11,526 nt of DNA from a virus (Duplodnaviria; Heunggongvirae; Uroviricota; Caudoviricetes), in IMG/VR virus record IMGVR_UViG_2537561670_000005; one strand, given 5' to 3'. Shown here in pieces: positions 1-11,283 of this stretch (positions within the stretch are counted from its first letter, which is position 1; the number at the start of each line of letters is the position of its first letter). Under the pieces are notes generated by a model. It was not told the origin of the DNA. It saw nothing but the letters and a program-made list of their open reading frames with translations, and searched no databases. Both the position numbers and the translations under genes were made by a program.

Positions 1-1242
1 ATGGCGAGAAAAACACACCCATTAACCACAGTGCAGATCAAAGCAGCCAGACCAGCGCAAAAGGAGTACACCCTGCAGGACGGCGGAGGGCTTTTTCTCC
101 TGGTCAAACCGTCTGGATCAAAACTCTGGAGATTTTCCTACTACCGACCATCGGACAAAAAAAGAATATTGCTGAGTTTTGGATCGCTTGAAGATGTTTC
201 CCTGGCTGATGCCAGAAAACGCCGTAGCGAGTACAGGACGTTAATCAGTGCCGGAACTGACCCGCAGGACCACGAGAGGCAAAAAAGAGAGACAGAGGCC
301 CGAAGACAAGGGAACACGTTCGAAAATGTGGCGGCGGCATGGTACCAGGTGAAAATCAGCCAGAATCTGGCCCCCAACACGATTAAAGACATCTGGCGTT
401 CGCTGGATAAATATGTATTCCCGTTCATCGGCAACACGCCAATAGATACCCTCACCGCCCGAAGGTTCGTTGAAGTGCTTACACCCATCAAGGAGCGCGG
501 CAACCTGGAAACACTCAAGCGGGTTTTACAGCGCGTTAATGAGGTAATGGATTACGCCGCCAACAGTGGGCTGATTGATGCCAATCCGGCTATGAATGTG
601 CGTAAGGCGTTTCCCTCACCTGTAAAAAAACATATGCCAACAATCCGCCCCGAACAGCTGCCGGAGCTTATGCAGGCTTTATCAGTATCGGCAACAGAAC
701 GGCAGACCAGATTACTGATTGAATGGCAGTTACTGACCGTAACCCGTCCCGCCGAAGCGTCATCAACGCGGTGGGATGAAATCAACCTGGACGCGAAGCA
801 ATGGACGATACCTGCCGGACGCATGAAGATGCGCAGGGATCACGTTATCCCGCTTTCCGGTCAGGCTATGGCGGTGCTGGAGGCCATGAAACCAATCAGC
901 CACCACCGCAATTACGTTTTCCCAAGTCTGAAAGACCCACAGCAGCCGATGAACAGCCAGACAGCTAACGCAGCATTGCGGCGTATGGGATTCGCTGGCG
1001 TGCTGGTGTCTCATGGATTACGCGCCATATTCAGCACAGCAGCGAACGAGGAAGGATTCGAGCCGGACGTAATAGAGGCGGCACTTGCCCACGTCGACAC
1101 CAACGAAGTTAGACGGGCATACAACCGGAGCAACTACATAGAAAAACGCATCGTGCTGATGCGCTGGTGGGGCGAATTTGTCGAGGCTGCGGCGACGGGC
1201 GTAACCCTCGCCAGTGGTAAAAGGGGTATCCGAGCCGTGTAG
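1..1242 (+). CDS. int: Tyrosine recombinase, P4-type integrase (site-specific integrase of a satellite/island)
   Basis: 413-aa ORF starting at the window edge. N-terminus (AARP..Y.L.DGGGL.LLVKPSGSK.WRF.Y) is typical of the P4 integrase arm-binding domain; C-terminal catalytic signature HGLRA and the tyrosine in RRAYNRSNY are present. True start could lie upstream of the window. Confidence 0.93.
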   Translation: MARKTHPLTTVQIKAARPAQKEYTLQDGGGLFLLVKPSGSKLWRFSYYRPSDKKRILLSFGSLEDVSLADARKRRSEYRTLISAGTDPQDHERQKRETEARRQGNTFENVAAAWYQVKISQNLAPNTIKDIWRSLDKYVFPFIGNTPIDTLTARRFVEVLTPIKERGNLETLKRVLQRVNEVMDYAANSGLIDANPAMNVRKAFPSPVKKHMPTIRPEQLPELMQALSVSATERQTRLLIEWQLLTVTRPAEASSTRWDEINLDAKQWTIPAGRMKMRRDHVIPLSGQAMAVLEAMKPISHHRNYVFPSLKDPQQPMNSQTANAALRRMGFAGVLVSHGLRAIFSTAANEEGFEPDVIEAALAHVDTNEVRRAYNRSNYIEKRIVLMRWWGEFVEAAATGVTLASGKRGIRAV

Positions 1243-1319
1243 CTGTACAGAAAACCAGTAAAAACTACGAAAACCATGTAAAACCGTCGTATAATTGCAT
1301 CAAATTTAACGACAAGGCC

Positions 1320-1571
1320 GTGAAACATGAAACCGTTAAGATGCAAAAAAATATCAGATGCAATTGCGACGGGCTGCAACTGGCCCTGATGGTTCAGCAT
1401 GAATTTTGGTCAACCTACGATCCGGAGGACAGAACGACGGCCCCATCAAAAAAACAGGTAGTAGATTTTCTGGTATCCCGTGGCGCTTCCAGAAATCTGG
1501 CGGTAAGTATTGATAAGGTCGTACGTCCGGCATCTATGAAGATCGGAGGCAGGCCCAAAAAATGGCGGTAA
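1320..1571 (+). CDS. Hypothetical small protein (83 aa as drawn; start uncertain, GTG at 1320 or ATG at 1341)
   Basis: Open frame preceded by TATAAT at 1290-1295 and AAGG at 1314-1317, and followed by a strong intrinsic terminator. No recognisable family; basic C-terminus GGRPKKWR. Could equally be non-coding leader. Confidence 0.33.
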   Translation: MKHETVKMQKNIRCNCDGLQLALMVQHEFWSTYDPEDRTTAPSKKQVVDFLVSRGASRNLAVSIDKVVRPASMKIGGRPKKWR

Positions 1572-1582
1572 CAATCCTGGAA

Positions 1583-1605
1583 GCGGCAGAAATGCCGCTT
1601 TTTTT
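1583..1605 (+). terminator. Rho-independent terminator
   Basis: Stem GCGGCA / TGCCGC with GAAA loop followed by a 7-T run (aagcggcagaaatgccgcttttttt). Confidence 0.7.
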
Positions 1606-1631
1606 ATAATTCCATTTCAAATCATCAATAT

Positions 1632-1719
1632 AAAAACGGTGTATACCGTTTAAAAACGGTGGGAACTGTTTTTACCCATATCCGATGATTTACCGTATTT
1701 GTCACCGGAATACACCGGA
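1632..1719. promoter_or_regulatory. Operator-like repeats upstream of alpA
   Basis: Inverted repeat AAACGGT-gtat-ACCGTTT (1634-1651) plus a third direct AAACGGT half-site at 1654-1660 (20 bp from the first); direct repeat CACCGGA at 1703-1709 and 1713-1719. Confidence 0.4.
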
Positions 1720-1737
1720 TTCACAAGGTAAATCACG

Positions 1738-1944
1738 ATGGAAGCAATCAGAAAAATTATCTTTCGCCAGGAAGTAAAAAAAATTATCCACATCAAGGCA
1801 GACAGCACGCTGCAAAGCATGATCAACGCCGGAGAATTTCCGCAGGGTTTTCGCGTTGGTTTACGCCGTCGCGGATGGTATGAGGATGATGTGTTGGCCT
1901 GGCAGAAAGAACGCGAACAGGAAGCACGCGGAACGGCTGCTTAA
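1738..1944 (+). CDS. alpA: AlpA-family (Vis/excisionase-like, MerR-type HTH) transcriptional regulator
   Basis: 68-aa ORF with AAGG RBS at 1725-1728. The pattern ...AGEFPQGFRVGLRRRGWYEDDVLAWQ matches the AlpA signature (FP..., G.R..GW.E.DV..W); its position directly after int is typical of P4-like and PICI elements. Confidence 0.85.
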   Translation: MEAIRKIIFRQEVKKIIHIKADSTLQSMINAGEFPQGFRVGLRRRGWYEDDVLAWQKEREQEARGTAA

Positions 1945-2092
1945 CGGGTATCACAGATATGACAAACACGAAAAAAGCGGCCCCGATATGGAGCCGCCTT
2001 TCTGAACAATTAACCCGCTGCGCCTTATGTGTATATGATCCCAAACATAAGCACGGGGATGATAGCCGCTATCAGGCTGGTGGGCAATGCAA

Positions 2093-2266
2093 TCAGTCTG
2101 GTTCAGTTCGTTGCCATACCTGCAATGAGCGCTTTTCCCTGTATTCTTTAAGGAATTGCTCAAGGGCAAAAGCACATGGCGCGAATCTTTCTGATTCATG
2201 CTCTATCTTTCTGCGCCGTCTTTTCCGTGCCGGTGATAATGTTTTGGTCAATTCTTTATCGGTCAT
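2093..2266 (-). CDS. Hypothetical small basic protein (57 aa from internal ATG; 62 aa from ATG at 2281)
   Basis: ORF 42 nt downstream of the RHH gene on the same strand; AGGA 10-13 nt upstream of the ATG at 2266; contains a KRRRRK stretch. Weak support, overlaps an antisense open frame. Confidence 0.25.
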   Translation of the reverse strand: MTDKELTKTLSPARKRRRRKIEHESERFAPCAFALEQFLKEYREKRSLQVWQRTEPD

Positions 2267-2323
2267 TGTGTTGTCCTGCATAGCAATGCGCCGTAATACC
2301 TTACACCACGGCGCTGATGGTGA

Positions 2324-2629
2324 TTACTCTGGTTCTTTGGTCTTGCGGCGCTGGAGTTCTTCACGTGCGACAGTGACGAGCTGCCCGATCTCCTCGGCGG
2401 CTTTGATTCCGAGTTTTTCCACCTGCGCCAGTGCATCGTGCGAAGAAATCAGGGGGTTTTCTCCGCTTCCTTCTGCCTGGCGGCGGGCGATTTCACCGCG
2501 CATGGCGGTTACTATGAATCCGGCGTTGCTTTCACCGTCCAGTTTTACGGATTCCATGCCTTCAATAACATCATGCGGGATCCGAGCTGTCAGTGATTGT
2601 GATTTTGCGTTTTTTGAACCTGTAGCCAT
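2324..2629 (-). CDS. Ribbon-helix-helix (Arc/CopG-like) DNA-binding protein, putative repressor of the early operon
   Basis: ATG at 2629 with GAGAGGA RBS 7 nt upstream (101 aa; the track start at 2644 is a TTG). N-terminal beta-strand/helix/helix pattern SLTARIPHDVIEGMESVKLDGESNAGFIVTAMRGEIARR. Divergent from the early operon with palindromes in between. Confidence 0.75.
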   Translation of the reverse strand: MATGSKNAKSQSLTARIPHDVIEGMESVKLDGESNAGFIVTAMRGEIARRQAEGSGENPLISSHDALAQVEKLGIKAAEEIGQLVTVAREELQRRKTKEPE

Positions 2630-2650
2630 CTGTAATCCTCTCAATGAAAG

Positions 2651-2745
2651 TGTAAGACAATATACACATAAAAAGTCTTACATAAAAGCATTGACATGTA
2701 AGCCACCTATAAATAAAGTTACTTACACCTTGTTAATGCAAGGTG
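2651..2745. promoter_or_regulatory. Divergent promoter/operator region between RHH regulator and early operon
   Basis: Inverted repeats TGTAAGAC (2651-2658) / GTCTTACA (2675-2682) and CACCTTG (2726-2732) / CAAGGTG (2739-2745); a further TGTAAG half-site at 2697; candidate rightward promoter TTGACA (2691-2696)-N17-TAAAGT (2714-2719). Confidence 0.5.
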
Positions 2746-2825
2746 CAGAAACGACGAAACCCCGCACTGTAGGAGCAGTAACGGGGCTTCTAACCACCAA
2801 CGATAGCAAGATTATCGAGGCAGCT

Positions 2826-3026
2826 ATGAGAAATTATACCATACACCCGCAAGGGCGGGACTCGTACAACCTGAATAAATACATCTGGCGTTTTATCGCC
2901 CTGAGCACGGCACAACCGCGCGTGATTACCATCGAGGCCACCAGCGAACAGGAAGCGCGTCAGCAATCTCCGGCTGGCTGCGTGATGGTATTTGCTGCCC
3001 GTATTCGTCAGGGGGTAGGCTTATGA
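2826..3026 (+). CDS. Small protein (66 aa), possibly Icd-like host cell-division inhibitor family
   Basis: ATG at 2826 with GAGG RBS at 2817-2820; stop overlaps the next start (ATGA). The motif pattern ...YIWRFIAL...SEQEARQ...VMVFAARIRQ resembles what I recall of Icd-like proteins found next to AlpA/primase in P4-like islands; family assignment unverified. Confidence 0.6.
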   Translation: MRNYTIHPQGRDSYNLNKYIWRFIALSTAQPRVITIEATSEQEARQQSPAGCVMVFAARIRQGVGL

Positions 3027-3253
3027 GCCAGGAAATCACACTACAACAGGCAGCAGAACGCGCCCACCAAATCGAAGTTATTTGCGCACTGGCAGAGGAT
3101 TACCCTGGCATGATGACCGACAGCGAATCAGGGGCAATCATCGGCTTACTTAAACGCCTTAGCGGTGAGGTCTGCGTATTCCTGAGCGATGAACAGGAAA
3201 GAAGAACGCTTATTTCTAACGAAAAAAAATGCGGAGGGGTACATGTGCAATAA
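3023..3253 (+). CDS. Hypothetical protein (76 aa), early operon
   Basis: ATG at 3023 overlapping the upstream stop (ATGA), G-rich RBS at 3011-3019; no recognisable family. Confidence 0.62.
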   Translation: MSQEITLQQAAERAHQIEVICALAEDYPGMMTDSESGAIIGLLKRLSGEVCVFLSDEQERRTLISNEKKCGGVHVQ

Positions 3254-3464
3254 AACCACACCGGACGCAGCAGCCGCCGCGCTCACTACGCTGATGCACG
3301 CGCTTATCGATATTGAATGCACTGCAGAGCTTGCGCAGGGAGAAGAACAGAAAGACCGGACACAGTTCGCCCTGGAATGTATCCGATACATCGCAACACG
3401 GTCGCTGAATGACGCTAAAAATATTCTTGTTGCTGATTGTGAAAATGGGGGGGGTTATGCGTGA
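3243..3464 (+). CDS. Hypothetical protein (73 aa), early operon
   Basis: ATG at 3243 with GGAGGGG RBS at 3233-3239 (the track ORF 3189..3464 trimmed to the RBS-supported start); stop overlaps the next start. Confidence 0.6.
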   Translation: MCNKTTPDAAAAALTTLMHALIDIECTAELAQGEEQKDRTQFALECIRYIATRSLNDAKNILVADCENGGGYA

Positions 3465-3678
3465 TGATCGTTTTAATTCCCTGAAACAGGAATTTTCCGG
3501 CGTTCCTGATGATGCGGCTGATGCGCTTTCGTCAATGCCAGAACTTATTAGAGCGGCTTTTTTCTTACTTTCCACGAGAGAATATAAATCAACGGGGCTT
3601 GATGTACTGAATATCGCCGCCGATTATGCTGATTTCGTGACAGAGGTTATTTTAAGAAAAACGACGGACGGGGATTAA
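3457..3678 (+). CDS. Hypothetical protein (73 aa), early operon
   Basis: ATG at 3457 preceded by a G8 run (RBS) and overlapping the upstream stop (ATGCGTGA); an alternative in-frame ATG at 3445 lacks an RBS. Confidence 0.58.
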   Translation: MRDDRFNSLKQEFSGVPDDAADALSSMPELIRAAFFLLSTREYKSTGLDVLNIAADYADFVTEVILRKTTDGD

Positions 3679-3679
3679 T

Positions 3680-3913
3680 ATGCGTGATATTTACCACGAA
3701 ACAATAGACCGCGCATTTCTTGCACTTTCTCACAGTGAAAACATGCTGGAAATATTGCGCATATGGCTTGAAACACTTGGCGACAATGAACGCGACAAAC
3801 AAAAATCAAGAATTGCCACGGCATTAATAACGCTTCTTGAGCCTGTAATAATGGAACTGCAAGAAATAGATCTATTGCACGATAGATATAAAGAACAGCA
3901 CACCGGAGAATAA
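3680..3913 (+). CDS. Hypothetical protein (77 aa), early operon
   Basis: ATG at 3680, 1 nt after the upstream stop, GGGGA RBS at 3669-3673; predicted helical, no recognisable family. Confidence 0.62.
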   Translation: MRDIYHETIDRAFLALSHSENMLEILRIWLETLGDNERDKQKSRIATALITLLEPVIMELQEIDLLHDRYKEQHTGE

Positions 3914-3918
3914 AAATA

Positions 3919-4218
3919 ATGAAACTTAAATATTCTGGCTTAACTGCCAGTGGCAACACTCACCCTAAATTTACGCGCGGCGATATTTACCGCGACCAGT
4001 ACGGCGGCACGGTAATGATTAAGGGCGTGGCGGGACGGTGCGTAACTTACCGCCGTGAAGGTTACGAATATGATTGCGTGATGCCTGTTTATCAGTTCCG
4101 GCGTGATTTTTCTCTGGTACAGACCGCGCCGCATAACGTGCCCACCAGCAACGCCAGGGCACGGGCAAACATCCAGAAGCTGAAAACCATGATTAACGGA
4201 TTCAGGGGTAAAAAATGA
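3919..4218 (+). CDS. Hypothetical protein (99 aa), early operon, immediately upstream of and coupled to primase
   Basis: ATG at 3919 with GGAGA RBS at 3905-3909; stop overlaps the primase start (ATGA at 4215-4218). Confidence 0.65.
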   Translation: MKLKYSGLTASGNTHPKFTRGDIYRDQYGGTVMIKGVAGRCVTYRREGYEYDCVMPVYQFRRDFSLVQTAPHNVPTSNARARANIQKLKTMINGFRGKK

Positions 4219-5969
4219 AACTGGCACCGAACGTAAAACAGCAGTCACGCGGCATAAAACACAAAGGAACAGAAGTCATTATTTTTGCGGGTAGTGATGC
4301 CTGGGCACACGCGAAACAATGGCAGGAACATGATGCGCGTATGGCCGGAGATAATGAGCCTCCTGTGTGGCTTGGGGAGCAGCAGTTATCAGAACTGGAT
4401 AAGCTGCAAATTGTGCCGGAAGGCAGAAAATCCGTGCGCATATTCAGGGCCGGATATCTTGCGCCAGTAATGATAAAGGCGATTGGTCAGAAGCTGGCGG
4501 CGGCAGGCGTACAGGATGCAAATTTTTACCCTGATGGTATGCACGGTCAGAAGGTGGAGAACTGGCGCGAATATCTGGCCCGTGAGCGCCAGAATCTTTC
4601 TGATGGTCTGGTCATTGAGCTTCCGGTAAAGCAAAAGGCGCAACTTTCGCAGATGGCGGACAGTGAGCGCGCGCAGCTGCTTGCCGATCGCTTTGATGGC
4701 GTTTGCGTACATCCTGAAAGTGAAATCGTTCACGTATGGCGCGGCGGGGTATGGTGTCCGGTCAGCACAATGGAACTTAGCCGCGAAATGGTGGCGATCT
4801 ATTCAGAGCACAGGGCCACTTTCAGCAAGCGCGTAATCAATAACGCCGTGGAAGCGTTAAAAGTTATTGCCGAACCAATGGGCGAGCCGTCCGGCGATTT
4901 GCTGCCGTTCGCCAATGGTGCGCTTGACCTGAAAACGGGGGAATTTTCCCCGCACACGCCGGAGAACTGGATCACCACGCACAACGGCATTGAGTACACG
5001 CCACCAGCACCAGGGGAGAACATCCGCGATAACGCGCCAAACTTTCATAAATGGCTTGAGCACGCAGCCGGAAAAGACCCGCGCAAGATGATGCGTATAT
5101 GTGCCGCGCTGTACATGATTATGGCGAACCGGTACGACTGGCAGATGTTTATTGAGGCCACCGGAGACGGCGGGAGCGGTAAAAGTACATTCACACACAT
5201 AGCCAGCCTTCTGGCAGGGAAACAAAACACGGTAAGCGCTGAAATGACATCGCTTGATGATGCTGGTGGGCGTGCGCAGGTTGTCGGGAGTCGTCTTATC
5301 GTCCTGGCAGACCAGCCGAAATATACAGGCGAAGGAACGGGCATCAAGAAAATCACGGGCGGCGACCCCGTGGAAATTAACCCGAAATATGAAAAGCGTT
5401 TTACGGCGGTAATCAGGGCGGTGGTGCTGGCAACCAATAACAATCCGATGATATTCACCGAACGGGCCGGAGGTGTGGCACGTCGTCGGGTGATATTCCG
5501 GTTCGATAACATCGTAAGCGAGGCAGAAAAAGACAGGGAGCTACCGGAAAAGATCGCGGCTGAAATCCCTGTCATTATCCGCCGCTTGCTGGCGAACTTT
5601 GCCGACCCTGAAAAGGCACGGGCTTTACTCATTGAACAGCGTGACGGTGATGAAGCACTGGCAATAAAGCAACAGACGGATCCGGTTATTGAGTTTTGCC
5701 AGTTCCTGAATTTTCTGGAGGAAGCACGCGGCCTGATGATGGGCGGCGGTGGCGATTCAGTGAAGTACACGACCAGAAACAGCCTTTACCGCGTCTATCT
5801 GGCGTTTATGGCGTACGCAGGCAGGAGCAAACCGCTAAACGTAAATGACTTTGGCAAGGCTATGAAGCCAGCCGCGAAAGTTTACGGACATGAATATATT
5901 ACGCGGAAAGTTAAAGGAGTAACGCAGACTAACGCAATAACAACAGACGATTGCGACGCGTTTTTATAA
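4215..5969 (+). CDS. P4-family phage/plasmid primase-helicase (D5_N-like region plus SF3-type NTPase), replication initiator
   Basis: 584-aa ORF; Walker A GDGGSGKST (nt ~5163-5189), Walker B-like RLIVLADQP, and a D5-N-like stretch (FANGALDLKTGEFSPHTPENWITTHNGIEY). Followed directly by an iteron array, as for PICI pri-rep/ori. Confidence 0.93.
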   Translation: MKLAPNVKQQSRGIKHKGTEVIIFAGSDAWAHAKQWQEHDARMAGDNEPPVWLGEQQLSELDKLQIVPEGRKSVRIFRAGYLAPVMIKAIGQKLAAAGVQDANFYPDGMHGQKVENWREYLARERQNLSDGLVIELPVKQKAQLSQMADSERAQLLADRFDGVCVHPESEIVHVWRGGVWCPVSTMELSREMVAIYSEHRATFSKRVINNAVEALKVIAEPMGEPSGDLLPFANGALDLKTGEFSPHTPENWITTHNGIEYTPPAPGENIRDNAPNFHKWLEHAAGKDPRKMMRICAALYMIMANRYDWQMFIEATGDGGSGKSTFTHIASLLAGKQNTVSAEMTSLDDAGGRAQVVGSRLIVLADQPKYTGEGTGIKKITGGDPVEINPKYEKRFTAVIRAVVLATNNNPMIFTERAGGVARRRVIFRFDNIVSEAEKDRELPEKIAAEIPVIIRRLLANFADPEKARALLIEQRDGDEALAIKQQTDPVIEFCQFLNFLEEARGLMMGGGGDSVKYTTRNSLYRVYLAFMAYAGRSKPLNVNDFGKAMKPAAKVYGHEYITRKVKGVTQTNAITTDDCDAFL

Positions 5970-5982
5970 TTTGTTGCAATGG

Positions 5983-6208
5983 CTGTCTACCCTGTCTACC
6001 TGAGTAAAGAAAAATACATTTAATTCAGTGCATTAAGTTAGGTAGATAGCCTTTTTTTACTGTCTACCCACTATCTACCCTCTCTACCTGATTTTACCTG
6101 AATCAGACAGGGAGGTAGACACGGGGTAGATAGTGGATAAAAGCACTCTACCCCGCTGAAAGCCGCGCCATTACTGGCATGAGGGCCACTAAGGTAGATA
6201 GGTAGACA
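5983..6208. repeat. Iteron-type replication origin (about 12 copies of YCTACC / GGTAGA in both orientations flanking an AT-rich stretch)
   Basis: Tandem CTGTCTACC at 5983-5991 and 5992-6000; CTGTCTACCC 6060-6069; CTATCTACCC 6071-6080; TCTCTACC 6081-6088; CTCTACCCC 6146-6154; inverted GGTAGATAG 6041-6049, GGTAGACA 6114-6121, GGTAGATAG 6125-6133, GGTAGATAGGTAGACA 6193-6208; AT-rich 6001-6040. Confidence 0.75.
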
Positions 6209-6256
6209 AGGGGAGGCACAACTCAAAACTTTTTAAACGAGGGGGTAAAAATAAAT

Positions 6257-6535
6257 ATGCACACTTCAGGGAAATTTAATAAATCACTCAAAAAACGCAG
6301 AGACAGAACAGAACCGAAATATCGCGCGTTAGACATGACAGAGCACGCTTTAAAGGTGGCAATCAGAACGATAGACCGACACGTAGGGGAAGGATACGCG
6401 AAGGAACATCCCGACCTGATAAGCGCATTCATGACCACAGCAGCGGCAAACTTTGCCACGCTGACAGAACGGGAGATTGCCGAAGCGGAACAGGTAACAA
6501 CCATCAACGTTAAAACCGGAGAGGTGGAATCATGA
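6257..6535 (+). CDS. Hypothetical protein (92 aa), translationally coupled to ssb
   Basis: ATG at 6257 with GAGGGGG RBS at 6239-6245; stop overlaps the ssb start (ATGA at 6532-6535). No recognisable family. Confidence 0.55.
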   Translation: MHTSGKFNKSLKKRRDRTEPKYRALDMTEHALKVAIRTIDRHVGEGYAKEHPDLISAFMTTAAANFATLTEREIAEAEQVTTINVKTGEVES

Positions 6536-6954
6536 CAGCACAGATAGCCGCTTACGGGCGGCTGGTGGACGACCCGCAGGTAAAACAGACCAGCAAGGGC
6601 ACACCGATGACGCTGGCGCGTATGGCGGTCCCCCTTCCGTGCAGCCAGGCAGATGACGGAACGGCGACGATGTGGTTATCCGTCCTGGCATTTGGCAGAC
6701 AGGCCGAAGCACTGGAAAGGCACCGCAAGGGTGAACTCCTGAGCGTGGCGGGTAACATGCAGATCAGCCAGTGGACTGGGCAGAACGGAGAAACGCGGCA
6801 GGGCTGGCAGGTTATCGCAGACAGTGTAATCAGTGCGCGAACGGCGCGACTGGGCGGCAAAAAAGGTCAACAGGGCCAGGCTACTGACGCGCTGAACAGG
6901 GCAAAACAACAGGCGGGGAATGATGATCCGTACGGGGATAACATACCGTTTTAA
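6532..6954 (+). CDS. ssb: Single-stranded DNA-binding protein (short phage/plasmid-type SSB)
   Basis: 140-aa ORF with GGAGAGGTGG RBS; OB-fold pattern comparable to E. coli SSB (G.L..DP..., W..V.AFG..AE......KG....V.G.......W); Gly/Gln-rich linker and canonical acidic C-terminal tail ...DDPYGDNIPF. Confidence 0.9.
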   Translation: MTAQIAAYGRLVDDPQVKQTSKGTPMTLARMAVPLPCSQADDGTATMWLSVLAFGRQAEALERHRKGELLSVAGNMQISQWTGQNGETRQGWQVIADSVISARTARLGGKKGQQGQATDALNRAKQQAGNDDPYGDNIPF

Positions 6955-6970
6955 GCGACGAGTGACAGAA

Positions 6971-6992
6971 GCCGGAGCAATCCGGCTTTTTT
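6971..6992 (+). terminator. Rho-independent terminator after ssb
   Basis: GCCGGA-gcaa-TCCGGC hairpin followed by TTTTTT. Confidence 0.75.
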
Positions 6993-7140
6993 ACGGGTCC
7001 TCCTGGCGGGGTGGGCCTGAACACGGGGCGGGAGGCGCGGAAAAAAGCGCATTTTTGTGATTTTATCGTCATCATCATCATGAGCGTAATTTATTGTTTT
7101 TAATTGTTTTGATGCAAAAAAGATGATGGTTGTGGTTAAT
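6993..7140 (+). other. Degenerate lambda-like cos-derived segment (cos-like site 1)
   Basis: acgggtcctcctgg (cosQ-like) ... acggggcgggaggcgcgg (cosN-like, GGGCGGGAGGCG in place of the lambda GGGCGGCGACCT) ... cgtcatcatcatcatgagcgtaatttattgtttttaatt, resembling the lambda cosB skeleton (cgtcataacttaatgtttttatttaaaa). The terminator plus cosQ module (6971-7006) is about 90% identical to 9411-9447. Confidence 0.45.
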
Positions 7141-7173
7141 TTTCGTTCGACATCTTTGCAGGCAGATAAAAAA

Positions 7174-7208
7174 GCCCGATAAGGTCAGAGGTGGCTTATC
7201 GGGCTTTT
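7174..7208. terminator. Bidirectional intrinsic terminator-like hairpin
   Basis: Perfect 10-bp stem GCCCGATAAG / CTTATCGGGC with an 11-nt loop, flanked by AAAAAA (5') and TTTT (3'). Confidence 0.5.
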
Positions 7209-7264
7209 GCATATGAGGCTTTTTGGTGCACTGACACACATGATCGGGATAATCATTTCATAAT

Positions 7265-7334
7265 TTGCAACGCAACTCAACATCATTGCACAAAATGCAA
7301 TCATGATTATAATCAGAGCTGGATGAACATCCAG
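7265..7334 (+). promoter_or_regulatory. Putative promoter/operator of the capsid operon
   Basis: TTGCAC (7286-7291)-N16-TATAAT (7308-7313); palindromes ATTGCA-caaaa-TGCAAT (7285-7301), TTGC-aac-GCAA (7265-7275) and CTGGATG-aa-CATCCAG (7319-7334) between the -10 and the RBS. Confidence 0.4.
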
Positions 7335-7369
7335 TTATGATTTTTTAAGTCAAAGAGGAATTTCTTACT

Positions 7370-7576
7370 ATGGCTGAAGAGAAAAAAGGCGGTGTTTCGG
7401 TGTACATAAGCCCCGACATCGTGAAGGCGCTCAAGGAACGCCACCAGCAGAACGTAAAAGCAGGCATTGCGGCAGGACTTGATCCGCTGGCGATGGTTGA
7501 GCCGTCAACAGGCTGGCAGGTACGCTCCTATTTACGCGCGGCGCTGGGCATAAATCAGACTCATGGGGGTGAATAA
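7370..7576 (+). CDS. Small protein (68 aa), possibly ribbon-helix-helix-like; first gene of the capsid operon
   Basis: ATG at 7370 with GAGGA RBS at 7355-7359; stop overlaps the capsid gene start (TAATG). GGVSVYISPDIVKALKERHQQ resembles a CopG/Arc-type strand-helix motif; assignment tentative. Confidence 0.55.
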   Translation: MAEEKKGGVSVYISPDIVKALKERHQQNVKAGIAAGLDPLAMVEPSTGWQVRSYLRAALGINQTHGGE

Positions 7577-8631
7577 TGGCAGTCAAAGCAATGGCACTTA
7601 ACACACACCAGCTTTTCGCGTACCTGAATCGCGAGGATATTGCGGAATTTAAATTTAGTCCGCTGTTTACCGCGCTGTTTTTCCCGAACGTGGCGACATT
7701 CAACACGCAAAACATCATGCTGGATACCCTGGACATTGAAGAAGTCACCATGTCGGCGTTTTGTTCGCCTATGGTGGGTAGCCAGGTTCAGCGCGATAAA
7801 GGGTACGAAACCAGCACGATTAAACCTGGCTACATGAAGCCAAAGCACGAAATCGATCCAACGAAAACCATCATGCGCATGGCTGGAGAAGATCCGGCAC
7901 AGCTTAACGACCCTACCTATCGCCGTATGCGCCTGATTACTGGCAATATGCGCCGCCAGATAAACGCCATAAAAGCGCGCGTGGAATGGCTGGCGGTAAA
8001 TGCGGTAACGACCGGAAAAAACATCATTGAGGGCGAAGGCATAGAGCGCTATGAAATCGACTGGAAGATACCGGAAAAAAACATCATAGAGCAGGCCGAC
8101 GGGAAAAAATGGTCAGAGCAGGACAAAGAAACCCACGATCCAATCTATGATATCGAACTATACGCCGATCAGGCTGGTTGCCCCGCAAACGTCATGATTA
8201 TGGGCGTTGAGGTATGGCGAACGTTACGCAGCTTTAAAAAATTCCGTGAGCTGTACGATCTTTCCCGTGGTTCAGAGTCCGCCGCAGAGCTGGCCTGTAA
8301 AAACCTGGGCGAAGTGGTGAGCTTTAAAGGCTATCTGGGCGATATTGCCCTTATCGTCTATTCCGGCAAATACACTGACAGCGACGGCACAGAAAAATAT
8401 TTCCTTGATCCTGATTTGCTGGTCCTGGGCAACACCAACAACAAAGGGCTGGTGGCCTATGGTGCGATTATGGATCAGGAAGCGGTAAGAACAGGCGCAA
8501 CGCAAAACATGTACTACCCGAAAAACTGGATTGAGGACGGCGATCCGGCGATTGAGTACGTGCAGACGCACAGCGCACCGCAGCCGGTTCCGGCAGATAT
8601 TCGCAAATTTGTTACCGTCAAAATTGCTTAA
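7576..8631 (+). CDS. Major capsid protein, lambda gpE-like
   Basis: 351-aa ORF alignable along its length to recalled lambda gpE (341 aa): FKFSPLF..LFF, KPGYMKPKHE, DP.YRR.R.I..NMR, W...DK.T.DP..DIE.YA, FRSFK, SYKG..GD.A..VYSG.Y, VLGNT...GL..YG, YPKNW...GDPA.E....SAP. Confidence 0.93.
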   Translation: MAVKAMALNTHQLFAYLNREDIAEFKFSPLFTALFFPNVATFNTQNIMLDTLDIEEVTMSAFCSPMVGSQVQRDKGYETSTIKPGYMKPKHEIDPTKTIMRMAGEDPAQLNDPTYRRMRLITGNMRRQINAIKARVEWLAVNAVTTGKNIIEGEGIERYEIDWKIPEKNIIEQADGKKWSEQDKETHDPIYDIELYADQAGCPANVMIMGVEVWRTLRSFKKFRELYDLSRGSESAAELACKNLGEVVSFKGYLGDIALIVYSGKYTDSDGTEKYFLDPDLLVLGNTNNKGLVAYGAIMDQEAVRTGATQNMYYPKNWIEDGDPAIEYVQTHSAPQPVPADIRKFVTVKIA

Positions 8632-8642
8632 CGGGGGATTCT

Positions 8643-8978
8643 ATGGACACTCCATACATTGAGTTATTTGCAGGCAGTCAGCAGGTATCCACGACGCTGG
8701 TACATTTTGCCGCTGATGCTGGCGTTATTCAGGAATTTACCCCGCTGATGCTGGCGGACAATGGCGAGTTTAAGCCGTGGGATGGTCAGGAATCTGGCAA
8801 GGCTGTTTATCTGACTTCGTACCTCGTGGACACGTCAAAGCAGAAATCAGCACAGTGTTACAAGACGGGGATATTCAATATTGCCGCCGTTAACTGGCCT
8901 GAGAGCGTCGACACCGATGCGAAAAAATGCGCCGCCTTTGCGGGTTCTGGCGTATCCGTTCAGCCGCTGGCCCGATAA
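8643..8978 (+). CDS. Head decoration protein, lambda gpD-like
   Basis: 111-aa ORF, GGGGGA RBS; aligns with recalled lambda gpD (110 aa): TPLMLD/TPLMLA, WDG, YKSG.F/YKTGIF, WPE, KK..AFAG..(I/V)S. Confidence 0.82.
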   Translation: MDTPYIELFAGSQQVSTTLVHFAADAGVIQEFTPLMLADNGEFKPWDGQESGKAVYLTSYLVDTSKQKSAQCYKTGIFNIAAVNWPESVDTDAKKCAAFAGSGVSVQPLAR

Positions 8979-8990
8979 GCAGGGGGAACG

Positions 8991-9404
8991 ATGGCAACGA
9001 ATGAAAGCATCATGGCGCTACCGCTGGCGAGTAAATTTAAAGCCGAAGCGCGGGCAATGGCTGACAGAGGTTTATCAACCTACGAGGCCGTATATCAACT
9101 CAACAAACTGGAAGAGCAGGACAAGCCGCGCGCTGATGCGATTATGGCGCTTCATGAGCATAAAGACTATCAGCCGCTGTTGCGTGCAATGGCAAACGTG
9201 CCTTGTATCGATGTTGATACGGCTAAAAACATCCTGAACATGACCATAGAGCAGGAACGCCCGAAGGTTGCACCAGAGCTTACCGCAGCCTTTGAAAACT
9301 TTATGGACATGCACAGCCCACAAACCGTATCAGCTGGCATGGCATACGATGGCAGAAACCCAGGCGATGACGGCGACATCGATCGCATACTGAAAACCAT
9401 CTGA
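8991..9404 (+). CDS. Hypothetical acidic protein (137 aa), last gene of the capsid operon; candidate scaffold/assembly factor
   Basis: ATG at 8991 with AGGGGGA RBS at 8981-8987; followed by a terminator; no recognisable family. Confidence 0.62.
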   Translation: MATNESIMALPLASKFKAEARAMADRGLSTYEAVYQLNKLEEQDKPRADAIMALHEHKDYQPLLRAMANVPCIDVDTAKNILNMTIEQERPKVAPELTAAFENFMDMHSPQTVSAGMAYDGRNPGDDGDIDRILKTI

Positions 9405-9410
9405 GACAAG

Positions 9411-9432
9411 GCCGGAGAAATCCGGCTTTTTT
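9411..9432 (+). terminator. Rho-independent terminator after the capsid operon
   Basis: GCCGGA-gaaa-TCCGGC hairpin followed by TTTTTT; near-identical to the terminator at 6971-6992. Confidence 0.75.
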
Positions 9433-9510
9433 GCGGGTCCTTCCTGGAATTATGGCCCGTTACGGGGCGGCGACCTCGCGGTTTTTCGCTATTTATGAGC
9501 TTTTTCAGGG
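9433..9510 (+). other. Lambda-type cos site 2 (cosQ + cosN, plus orientation, cosB truncated)
   Basis: gcgggtccttcctgg ... ttacGGGCGGCGACCTcgcggtttttcgctatttatgag matches the recalled lambda right-end/left-end junction (cgggtcctttccgg...ttacg|GGGCGGCGACCTcgcgggttttcgctatttatgaaaa); the 12-nt cohesive-end sequence is at 9465-9476. Downstream sequence diverges from lambda R sites. Confidence 0.8.
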
Positions 9511-9609
9511 GGGTGGTGGTGGTTTTGTTGTTTGCTCTATCTTTATGAATGAAAAGGGAAAGATGCAAACAATACACCAACCTGAAGCAGTAATTAAGTT
9601 GGTGTATTA

Positions 9610-10152
9610 ATGAAATCGCACCTGATGAACAAAAAAAACATGGCGAAAAGCTGCCGTGTAAGTGCGACAGCGTTCGACAAGTGGGGAGTGACTCCCGTTG
9701 AACGTAAAGGCCGTGAGGCGTTTTACGATGTTGCCAGCGTGATAGACAATAGGGTTAACAATGCAATTAGCCAGCTTACAAACGACAAAGGCGATATTGA
9801 TGATGATGAACTCTTACGAGTCAGGATCAGATTACTGACAGCACAGGCGGAGGCGCAGGAACTTAAAAACGAGCGCGATCGCGGTGACGTGATTGATACT
9901 GAGTTTTGCCTGTACGCGCTTTCAAAGCTGGCGAGTCAGATTTCATCAATCATGGACAGCCTCCCGCTTACTATGCAAAGGAGCTTCCCACAGATTACCC
10001 CCGCCATGCTGGATAGGCTTAAAAGGGAAGTGGTTAAAGCCTGTAATGCCAGTGCCAGAGTTGCCGACAACCTCCCACAGATACTGGCTGATTACTTGAA
10101 AGAAACAACCGGAAACGTACCGGAAAAGTTGCTACAGAAGAAAGGCGAGTAA
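9610..10152 (+). CDS. Terminase small subunit, lambda Nu1-like (start uncertain: 9610, 9625 or 9640)
   Basis: 180-aa ORF; strong similarity to recalled lambda Nu1: LTAQAEAQELKNERDRGDVIDTEFCLYALSKLASQISSIMDSLPLTMQRSFP vs RLTRAQADAQELKNARDSAEVVETAFCTFVLSRIAGEIASILDGLPLSVQRRFP; the N-terminus MNKKNMAK... (from 9625) parallels MEVNKKQLA..., and FYDVASVI parallels LYDSAAVI. Weak RBS at all candidate starts. Confidence 0.9.
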   Translation: MKSHLMNKKNMAKSCRVSATAFDKWGVTPVERKGREAFYDVASVIDNRVNNAISQLTNDKGDIDDDELLRVRIRLLTAQAEAQELKNERDRGDVIDTEFCLYALSKLASQISSIMDSLPLTMQRSFPQITPAMLDRLKREVVKACNASARVADNLPQILADYLKETTGNVPEKLLQKKGE

Positions 10153-10169
10153 CAGACGCGCAATTATTG

Positions 10170-10378
10170 AACAAAACTGAGAAACGACATGAAAGCGTCA
10201 TAAATCGCCATTTTAGATGATTACCGTGTCGTTTCTTTTTATTGTGTATCTATTTAAAAACAAATAGTTATGTTCGAGAAGTACCGACATGCTTTTTCCA
10301 GAAAAATTTTCATAAACAGATAAAAACCGCGAGGTCGCCGCCCCGTAACGGGTCCATAATTCCAGGAAGGACCCGACG
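10170..10378 (-). other. Lambda-type cos site 3 (cosQ + cosN + cosB-like R elements), minus orientation
   Basis: The reverse complement reads cgggtccttcctggaattatggacccgttacGGGCGGCGACCTcgcggtttttatctgtttatgaaaatttttctgg...ataactatttgtttttaaatag...aaaagaaacgacacgg...tgtcgtttctcagttttg, colinear with recalled lambda cosQ-cosN-cosB (tttatgaaaattttccgg, ataacttaatgtttttatttaaaa, aaaggaaacgacagg, tgtcgtttcctttctctgtttttg). Confidence 0.8.
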
Positions 10379-10408: not shown

Positions 10409-10690
10409 ATGACAGAAGCCGAAATACTGGGATTAATCCGCCGTGCTGGTGGAATCAGCCAGCAGACTGACGAACAGGCCACGCAGCCGGACAGCGTGAC
10501 AGCCGAAAATTATGCGCGTGTTGTTGCTGAGGTGATGCGCCGTGATGGTATCCAGCTTAATGATGTGGATATGCGCAACATACGGATCCGCGTTCTTGAA
10601 ATGCTGGCCTACAATCGCCGCGTGGCACTGTATCGGGAAACGGAGAAAATTACATACCACTGGAAGAAGCCGGAGCGGTTGCGGCGGTAA
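10409..10690 (+). CDS. Hypothetical protein (93 aa) between inverted cos site 3 and the terminal repeat array
   Basis: ATG at 10409 with weak RBS; basic C-terminus; no recognisable family. Confidence 0.5.
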   Translation: MTEAEILGLIRRAGGISQQTDEQATQPDSVTAENYARVVAEVMRRDGIQLNDVDMRNIRIRVLEMLAYNRRVALYRETEKITYHWKKPERLRR

Positions 10691-10863: not shown

Positions 10864-11283
10864 CAGCCATTGGCGTAATCCGGCGCGGTAACTTGCTGAA
10901 CTTAAAGCAAAGCGCAAAATTGCGCTGGCTGGTGGGCATGATGCCGATATGGTGATCCCCATAACGGAAATATCCACCAGCACGGCAACGGCAGAATAGC
11001 CACAACACAGAAAAACCACGAATATGGGGTTTTTGTTATGGCATGGGCATGATGACCGCCCCTGCTCTGAATGGTGGAAATCACCACGCAGATCATCCAC
11101 CAGCTTCGTTTTTATAAATTAAACATCCGGGAAAATCCGACCCTGAATTGTGCATTTTTTCAGCAAATCATTTTAGTTATACGTTTGGTTATACGGTTTA
11201 AAAGTTGAATCATATACATTATTTTAAATCATGAAGTTACACGCTCAATTAAACTACTCTCGTGGACCAAAAATCCCAAGAAA

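Follow-up and report, generated by a model that had tools for sequence, protein, structure and literature searches.

Head genes and a small-terminase cassette in the probable late operon of the Escherichia coli island EcCIATCC25922

The window analysed here is a stretch of 11,526 nt (IMG/VR record IMGVR_UViG_2537561670_000005), in whose positions all coordinates are given, and its region of interest, 6971-10378, carries a short series of lambda-type head and packaging genes. This region is 100% identical in nucleotide comparison to Escherichia coli Nissle 1917, ATCC 25922 and their relatives. In the Nissle 1917 chromosome it belongs to an island that lies between yejM/proL (tRNA-Pro) and the yejO pseudogene/narP and is flanked by a 26-nt direct repeat, with the att sequence TTTTAGTTATACGTTT(A/G)GTTATACGG. 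The left copy, attL, is found ~130 nt past tRNA-Pro and 62-87 nt upstream of window base 1, while attR, its direct repeat, occupies 11171-11196 (+ strand; TTTTAGTTATACGTTTGGTTATACGG). The att-bounded length is 11,283 bp, and nearly the whole island falls inside the window.

An island of this description has been catalogued. Table S1 of Fillol-Salom et al. (2018, ISME J; PMC6092414) lists the phage-inducible chromosomal island (PICI) EcCIATCC25922 at CP009072.1 (106749-118031), with a length of 11.3 kb and the site yejM-luxR, as a catalogue entry without experiments on the island. Window base 1 corresponds to position 106836 of CP009072.1 in a 100% match, inside the listed coordinates, and the size, the yejM-side att site and the listed att sequence also agree; the window is therefore that catalogued PICI. 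The region of interest is very probably the late, helper-exploitation operon of this classical cos-packaged enterobacterial PICI, which would then be a sibling of the prototype Gram-negative cos PICI, EcCICFT073, with a cassette encoding a small terminase subunit (terS) replacing rppA.

Capsid, decoration and scaffold-like genes

The head operon is laid out in the same order in EcCICFT073, where c1498, c1499, c1500 and c1501 are followed by a packaging gene and a gene for a 93-amino-acid protein. Its second gene in the window, on the + strand at 7576-8631, encodes a 351-residue major capsid protein of the lambda gpE family (Pfam Phage_cap_E, E=3.4e-52; PHROG 29 major head protein, 7.7e-110) that is 44% identical to lambda gpE over 328 residues and 97% identical to c1499. 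The Protein Data Bank (PDB) entry 3BQW, deposited as a 'putative capsid protein of prophage', is c1499 exactly. The third gene (8643-8978, + strand) encodes a 111-residue head decoration protein of the lambda gpD family (Pfam HDPD, 5.7e-17; PHROG 49, 3.8e-26), with 36% identity to lambda gpD over 76 residues and 97% identity to c1500. The names capsid and head-decoration gene were already given to c1499 and c1500 in the EcCICFT073 work, where some E. coli PICIs are also said to carry terS (PMC6092414).

The first gene of the operon (7370-7576, + strand) encodes a conserved 68-residue protein that is 94% identical to c1498, belongs to PHROG 3255 (unknown function) and has homologues in PICIs of E. 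coli, Salmonella and Pluralibacter. Its AlphaFold model, with a predicted local distance difference test score (pLDDT) of 77, consists of two helices and no strand, and a Foldseek search of the model against the PDB returned nothing below E=1.9. An N-terminal motif had raised the possibility of a ribbon-helix-helix regulator, which was rejected on the lack of a Pfam or NCBIfam match and on the strandless model. Homology to gpW was considered because the length equals that of lambda W, and was likewise discarded as no similarity was found.

The fourth gene (8991-9404, + strand) encodes a 137-residue protein, 93% identical to c1501, which on sequence comparison is a homologue of the C-terminal scaffold (Nu3-equivalent) part of phage-21-type gpC. 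The protein matches the C-terminal end (494-567 of 583) of the PHROG 53 'head maturation protease' profile with E=2.7e-9, and BLAST aligns it with residues 416-493 of the 501-residue phage-21-type gpC of a CFT073 prophage (36% identity in an alignment of 83 residues). An hhalign comparison of its family with phage-21-type gpC gives a probability of 94.6% (E=6.6e-8). The Nu3-equivalent region of that gpC contains three copies of a motif, I-M-x-L/C-x-E-A-x-G-x-E-x-x-A-x-x-L-A-x-x-P-G-M-T-V-E-x-A-R-x-I-L, which aligns to residues 126-165 of lambda Nu3. The island protein looks like two such Nu3-type repeats followed by a conserved C-terminal tail, FExFMxxHSP, which in the window reads FENFMDMHSP.

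Further evidence comes from an exhaustive phmmer search with the 137-residue protein, which recovered nine representatives. One of these, P0041, is a low-complexity false match, whereas P0042, a stand-alone scaffold protein of 195 residues, is informative: it matches both PHROG 1999, the family of the 137-residue protein (1e-41), and PHROG 53 (4e-44), in addition to PHROGs named 'head scaffolding protein' and 'capsid assembly protein'. Because hhalign matches the family only weakly to the Nu3 of lambda itself (E=0.0094), the link to scaffolds is drawn through phage-21-type gpC and P0042. Some members of the family bear the NCBI name 'head-tail connector protein', for which no basis was found, and sequence searches of the PDB with this protein and with TerS gave nothing useful.

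In the island the capsid gene (E) precedes the decoration gene (D), whereas lambda has C/Nu3, D, E. The series E, D, Nu3-like, Nu1-like (7576-10152) is the exact reverse of the order Nu1 ... Nu3, D, E at lambda 191-7160, with the strand unchanged, and the arrangement is thus a permutation of the lambda order and not an inversion. The operon region is followed on the right by a gene for a conserved 93-residue protein (10409-10690, + strand; PHROG 1561) that is 91% identical to its EcCICFT073 homologue.

Much of this gene content had been read from the letters alone in an initial annotation, and its assignments of a gpE-like capsid protein, a gpD-like decoration protein and a Nu1-like TerS hold, as does its remark that the E-then-D order is turned round relative to lambda. 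It also counted two small ORFs without recognisable function; both exist (7370-7576 and 8991-9404), but the second is the Nu3-type scaffold homologue. Genes for portal, protease, large terminase subunit (TerL), tail and lysis proteins were not found in the att-bounded island by the open reading frame (ORF) list or by Pfam and PHROG scans, in agreement with the RefSeq annotation. What the initial annotation noted, that genes for portal, protease, TerL and tails are missing, thus holds for the whole att-bounded element and not for the window alone.

The packaging cassette and its cos sites

The packaging gene (9610-10152, + strand) encodes a full-length TerS of the Nu1 family with 180 residues (Pfam Phage_Nu1, 2.3e-23). 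It aligns end to end with lambda Nu1 and N15 gp1, with 35% identity to Nu1 (residues 6-166 against 3-180 of 181) and 46% to N15 gp1, and has a DNA-binding domain like that of N15 gp1. The C-terminal segment, LPQILADYLKE, is closer to that of lambda/N15 (IPGLLSEYIEQ) than to that of phage 21. In lambda and phage 21, genetics has shown that the C-terminus of Nu1/gp1 sets the TerL partner. By that rule, the lambda/N15-like C-terminus suggests that the island TerS would recruit a TerL of the lambda/N15 type to the left cos site.

Rpp (redirecting phage packaging) proteins, one of which is encoded at this place in EcCICFT073, have about 144-153 residues and join a TerS-like DNA-binding domain to a dimerisation C-terminus of their own. 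Identity of the 180-residue protein with Rpp was considered and rejected, since BLAST did not match it to RppA and a PDB search at E<=1 did not bring up RppC (6HLK). RppA of EcCICFT073 itself matches RppC 6HLK at 5e-31, which confirms the identity of rppA.

Two cos sites enclose the gene. The left site (9435-9609, + strand) comprises cosQ, GGGTCCT, at 9435-9441, an exact lambda/21 cosN, GGGCGGCGACCT, at 9465-9476, and an island-specific cosB at 9477-9609 that runs up to terS and is 96% conserved among six TerS-type islands. The right site (10153-10374, - strand) is inverted, with cosQ at 10368-10374, a second exact cosN (GGGCGGCGACCT) at 10332-10343 and a phage-21-like cosB that points back to the 3' end of terS, its R3, I1, I2 region being 90% identical to phage 21. 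Both cosN sites sit in an inverted repeat of ~75 nt (9434-9505 / 10303-10375).

The cassette 9434-10375, made up of one cosB, terS or rppA and a second cosB, therefore lies between inverted cosQ-cosN repeats, and in some genomes it is flipped. Strain CUVET16-394 has the rppA cassette the other way round from EcCICFT073, at 99.4% identity and with collinear flanks, and the terS cassette is oriented as in the window in 494 genomes and inverted in five. Such flipping could arise by recombination between the repeats, or by terminase cuts at both cos sites that leave identical ends able to re-anneal either way.

A further cos-like segment is found upstream of the head operon. This non-coding stretch (6993-7160, + strand) begins with a cosQ-like GGGTCCT followed by GGGGCGGGAGGCGCGG, and is ~90% identical to the Rz-to-terminase intergenic region of Shiga toxin (Stx) phages such as VT1-Sakai; its G-rich cosN-like core differs from lambda cosN. 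The segment occurs in islands that lack perC (the one in the window and one more) and in 158 records at >=95% identity, and its more distant copies, where checked, are in Stx-type phages. Judged by its position in those phages, it may serve helpers of a second class as a third cos site. A literature search for an Stx-phage cos sequence returned nothing usable. Ahead of both this segment and the left cos, at 6971-7001 and 9411-9441, stands a shared terminator-like hairpin and then (A/G)CGGGTCCT (GCCGGAG-AATCCGGCTTTTTT-), which suggests that one 5' boundary module is common to the Stx-type segment and the left lambda-type cos.

Relation to EcCICFT073 and other satellites

At the DNA level the window island and EcCICFT073 are 93-96% identical over the regulatory, replication and head regions and diverge at three places only: int/alpA, 6860-7168 and the packaging cassette at 9506-10297. 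The first divergence reflects a different integrase and att site, ycfD-phoQ in EcCICFT073 as opposed to yejM. At the second, EcCICFT073 has perC where the window island has the Stx-type cos-like segment. The third separates two packaging systems, since EcCICFT073 encodes rppA (144 residues), whose product binds the helper TerS, with divergent cosB sequences, while the window island has the 180-residue TerS with its own cosB and a phage-21-like cosB. Both islands place two inverted cosN sites around the packaging gene; those of EcCICFT073 are named cos1 and cos2, and its cosB has been described as completely divergent from phage cosB (PMC6092414, PMC6739421).

About 36 kb from EcCICFT073, the CFT073 chromosome carries a lambdoid prophage at icd whose TerS is identical to phage 21 gp1 and which has a full Nu1-A-W-B-C-D-E head module. 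This prophage is probably the helper called 'phage 4', whose printed cos region closely resembles that of phage 21 (PMC6092414).

The remaining gene content of the window island follows the classical PICI plan: a size of ~8-15 kb, att repeats at a dedicated site, a left-end integrase, an AlpA-type activator and mainly rightward genes, its own primase-replicase with an origin just 3' of it, a capsid homologue and terS with cos, and no tail, lysis, portal or large-terminase genes. Here the 26-nt repeat bounds 11,283 bp, and Table S1 of PMC6092414 includes PICIs with this site and this att sequence. The integrase (1-1242, + strand) is recognised by Pfam Phage_integrase (5.7e-29) and Arm-DNA-bind_3 (4.6e-23), by its place in the Nissle chromosome and by the att repeat. 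A 68-residue regulator (1738-1944, + strand; helix-turn-helix regulator in RefSeq) is a candidate AlpA-type activator, and the small ORFs between it and the primase include Icd-like and DUF4222 proteins. The main ORFs lie on the + strand, the exception being one of 106 residues at 2324-2644. The primase-replicase (pri-rep; 4215-5969, + strand) has D5_N, DUF5906 and Pox_D5 domains in Pfam, matches PHROG 864 DNA primase at 2.9e-175 and is 93% identical in DNA to that of EcCICFT073. Directly 3' of it, a repeat search found about 11 copies of CT(G/A)TCTACC(C/T) in both orientations (5983-6213), an iteron array that is the expected PICI replication origin and agrees with the position of ori described in PMC6092414. 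A gene for a single-strand DNA-binding protein (SSB; 6532-6954, + strand; Pfam SSB, 4.9e-15) and a 92-residue ORF beside it lie between this origin and the 415 nt of non-coding DNA that separate SSB from the 68-residue ORF of the head operon. Scans of the window found no Rfam families, and no promoter or terminator signal above chance.

The capsid homologue, TerS and the two exact cosN sites complete the set, which also corresponds to the core of the SatelliteFinder PICI model, namely integrase, regulator, primase-replicase, capsid morphogenesis and terS; 97% of the complete (type A) PICI matches of that model are in E. coli. When compared with the catalogued satellite families, as the initial annotation had proposed, the window island fits the classical PICIs, and neither the capsid-forming PICIs (cf-PICIs) nor the P4-like elements.

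The cf-PICIs, such as EcCIEDL933 (Alqurainy et al., bioRxiv 10.1101/2022.09.08.507074), likewise combine an int-alpA-pri left half with their own capsid protein and TerS. However, their gene set further includes protease, portal, head-tail connectors, HNH and TerL, so that only tails are stolen, and membership was rejected because TerL, portal, prohead protease, head-tail adaptor/connector and HNH are all absent from the att-bounded element. Satellite P4 shares with the window island an integrase, an AlpA-like regulator, a D5_N/alpha-like primase and packaging through helper cos, but its cos is of the P2 type, in place of lambda/21-type, and it has no capsid protein of its own. A P4-like assignment was likewise dismissed after Pfam and PHROG searches, small ORFs included, gave no match to Sid, Psu, Delta or Epsilon. 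The P4-family replication module of the initial annotation is accordingly reduced to a D5_N primase distantly like P4 alpha, with nothing else in the island P4-like. SaPIbov5, with its Ccm, and PmCI172 are likewise satellites that encode a homologue of the helper major capsid protein without a full head module; these are associated with small capsids, which have not been seen for the E. coli islands, and relative to them the window island adds decoration and scaffold homologues.

The gene content thus supports the initial view of a satellite that has a reduced lambda-type head and packaging set and takes portal, protease and tails from a lambdoid helper. The accompanying suggestion that capsid plus decoration alone represents a distinct strategy does not stand, as this is the standard layout of classical enterobacterial PICIs, catalogued as EcCIATCC25922 and present as the same block in EcCICFT073. 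The gene set is real but ordinary for classical E. coli PICIs, and no new kind of element is at hand.

By analogy with EcCICFT073, a lambdoid helper would switch on alpA, the island would excise at the 26-nt att, and replication from the iteron origin beside pri would yield concatemers. The island's full-length TerS would then bind the island-specific cosB at the left cos, while its lambda/N15-like C-terminus would recruit the helper TerL, which would cut at the cosN identical to that of lambda/21. The inverted right cos, with its phage-21-like cosB, might be directly usable by the terminase of a 21-type helper. Portal, protease, TerL and tails, for which the island has no genes, have to be supplied by the helper. 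The genes for capsid, decoration and the Nu3-like protein are intact and under purifying selection and so make functional proteins; in EcCICFT073 they are dispensable for transfer and for interference with lambda.

Several points weigh against this account of the region. EcCIATCC25922 is known from its sequence and a catalogue entry, so that, gene content and signals excepted, its mechanism is assigned by analogy; helper induction and high-frequency helper-dependent transfer have been shown for EcCICFT073 only (PMC6092414). The AlpA assignment relies on a Pfam Phage_AlpA match below the cut-off (E=0.0035) and on 28% identity to AlpA of EcCICFT073 (E=2e-7), and the type of the partner TerL is a guess from C-terminal resemblance. 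In addition, the TerS-encoding E. coli PICIs that have been tested (IHE3034, strain 18098) were transferred barely or not at all by resident prophages, with <1 to 110 transductants/ml (PMC6092414), and packaging through TerS is for this reason a putative route. The very same TerS protein (WP_000835278.1) is encoded by an island at the clpS site, which is the site listed for EcCIIHE3034.

Possible roles of the head genes

A 2-kb block of head genes is present in 592 of 5426 complete E. coli genomes (>=80% coverage, >=92.8% identity), and the TerS-type cassette is the majority form, with the window junction in 494 genomes. Among eight islands examined, the block occurs at five chromosomal sites (yejM, phoQ, clpS, caiA and the ydgV/tqsA sides) and is joined to replication modules of three types (D5_N primase, RepA helicase and DUF927), and all six genes are intact in every island. 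The median pairwise ratio of nonsynonymous to synonymous substitution rates (dN/dS) in these eight is 0.11 for the capsid gene, 0.14 for decoration, 0.16 for terS, 0.20 for the 93-residue protein, 0.29 for the 137-residue protein and 0.34 for the 68-residue protein. The closest phage proteins in 50,697 phage genomes are only 47% (capsid) and 46% (TerS) identical. The genes of the head block are satellite-specific and under selection.

These data bear on the defective lambdoid prophage that the initial annotation had named as one outcome that would refute its proposal. A decaying prophage fragment beside an unrelated integrative element would account for head genes of the lambda family and for cos segments that match lambdoid phages, and yet it is scarcely credible. 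The block is part of an 11.3-kb island that is delimited by att repeats and has an int, a pri and an ori of its own, its ORFs are all intact with dN/dS of 0.11-0.34, it recurs at five sites with three replication modules, and it has no close relative among sequenced phages; the reading was rejected on these grounds.

What the selected head genes contribute has been addressed genetically in EcCICFT073. Interference with lambda and transfer by the resident helper both stayed the same when c1499 or c1500 was deleted, a c1499::cat derivative, in which the capsid gene is replaced, is transferred with phage 80 at up to 10^6/ml, and the DNA packaged with lambda is phage-sized (PMC6092414). A 2019 review of capsid piracy repeats this. 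The excised window island measures ~11.26 kb, and four copies, ~45 kb, fit a lambda-size head, in agreement with the view of the authors of PMC6092414 that terminase skips cos sites. Nevertheless, the site named in the marker c1501::tetA, used for most EcCICFT073 genetics, is the 137-residue scaffold-like gene, and the other marker, c1499::cat, replaces the capsid gene. The published results for c1499 and c1500 therefore came from a module that was already disrupted. If the capsid, decoration and scaffold proteins act together, neither background could show it. Later functional studies of capsid genes from classical E. coli PICIs, or of named TerS-type islands, were looked for in the literature, and nothing turned up past the 2018/2019 papers and the 2019 review.

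One possibility, to be held tentatively and in line with the initial annotation, is that the three proteins build island-specific and perhaps small shells on the helper portal with the helper protease, making the island a minimal capsid-forming satellite. In ~11% of complete E. coli genomes a coherent capsid, decoration and Nu3-like triad persists, intact and under purifying selection, SaPIbov5 Ccm and PmCI172 (a capsid homologue with small capsids) offer precedents, one 11.26-kb genome amounts to ~83% of a T=3 head by a rough volume scaling from lambda, and the contrary deletion results were obtained in the c1501::tetA or c1499::cat backgrounds. Even so, transfer of the c1499::cat island with phage 80, phage-sized DNA in lambda and the lack of an effect of either deletion on transfer by the resident helper all argue for full-size capsids, as the 2018 authors and the capsid-piracy review conclude. 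The more specific proposition that the head genes form a working minimal module, which with the portal and protease of the right natural helper would give island-specific and probably small capsids, the missing phenotype of the prototype being a marker artefact, is doubtful. It is also unlikely, though worth stating, that the head proteins serve interference or defence, for example by poisoning or diverting the capsid assembly of particular lambdoid phages, helpers or not. Genes that are dispensable for transfer yet under purifying selection would suit such a role, PICIs commonly carry several interference mechanisms, and an island capsid protein 44-47% identical to lambdoid capsid proteins might co-assemble with them. 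Against it, loss of c1499 or c1500 did not relieve lambda interference, but Rpp alone blocks lambda and would mask any effect.

Several features of the EcCIATCC25922 late region were not found in the literature searched: the Nu3-type homology of the 137-residue protein, a terS between inverted exact lambda/21 cosN sites in a cassette that replaces rppA and is occasionally inverted, the upstream third, Stx-phage-type cos-like segment, and the maintenance of intact, selected head genes in 592 of 5426 genomes. About one in nine complete E. coli genomes thus keeps an intact and selected capsid, decoration and scaffold-like set without a published phenotype. The question of the head module is now easier to test, with c1501 recognised as Nu3-type, the existing knock-outs placed in backgrounds already hit, and the TerS-type islands (494 of 592) seen to be commoner than the studied Rpp type. 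Since the islands used for the published knock-outs already had c1501 or c1499 disrupted, the head genes may yet have a capsid-building role. Nissle 1917 is a widely used probiotic strain and ATCC 25922 a widely used reference strain, and the mobility of an island resident in both may matter in practice.

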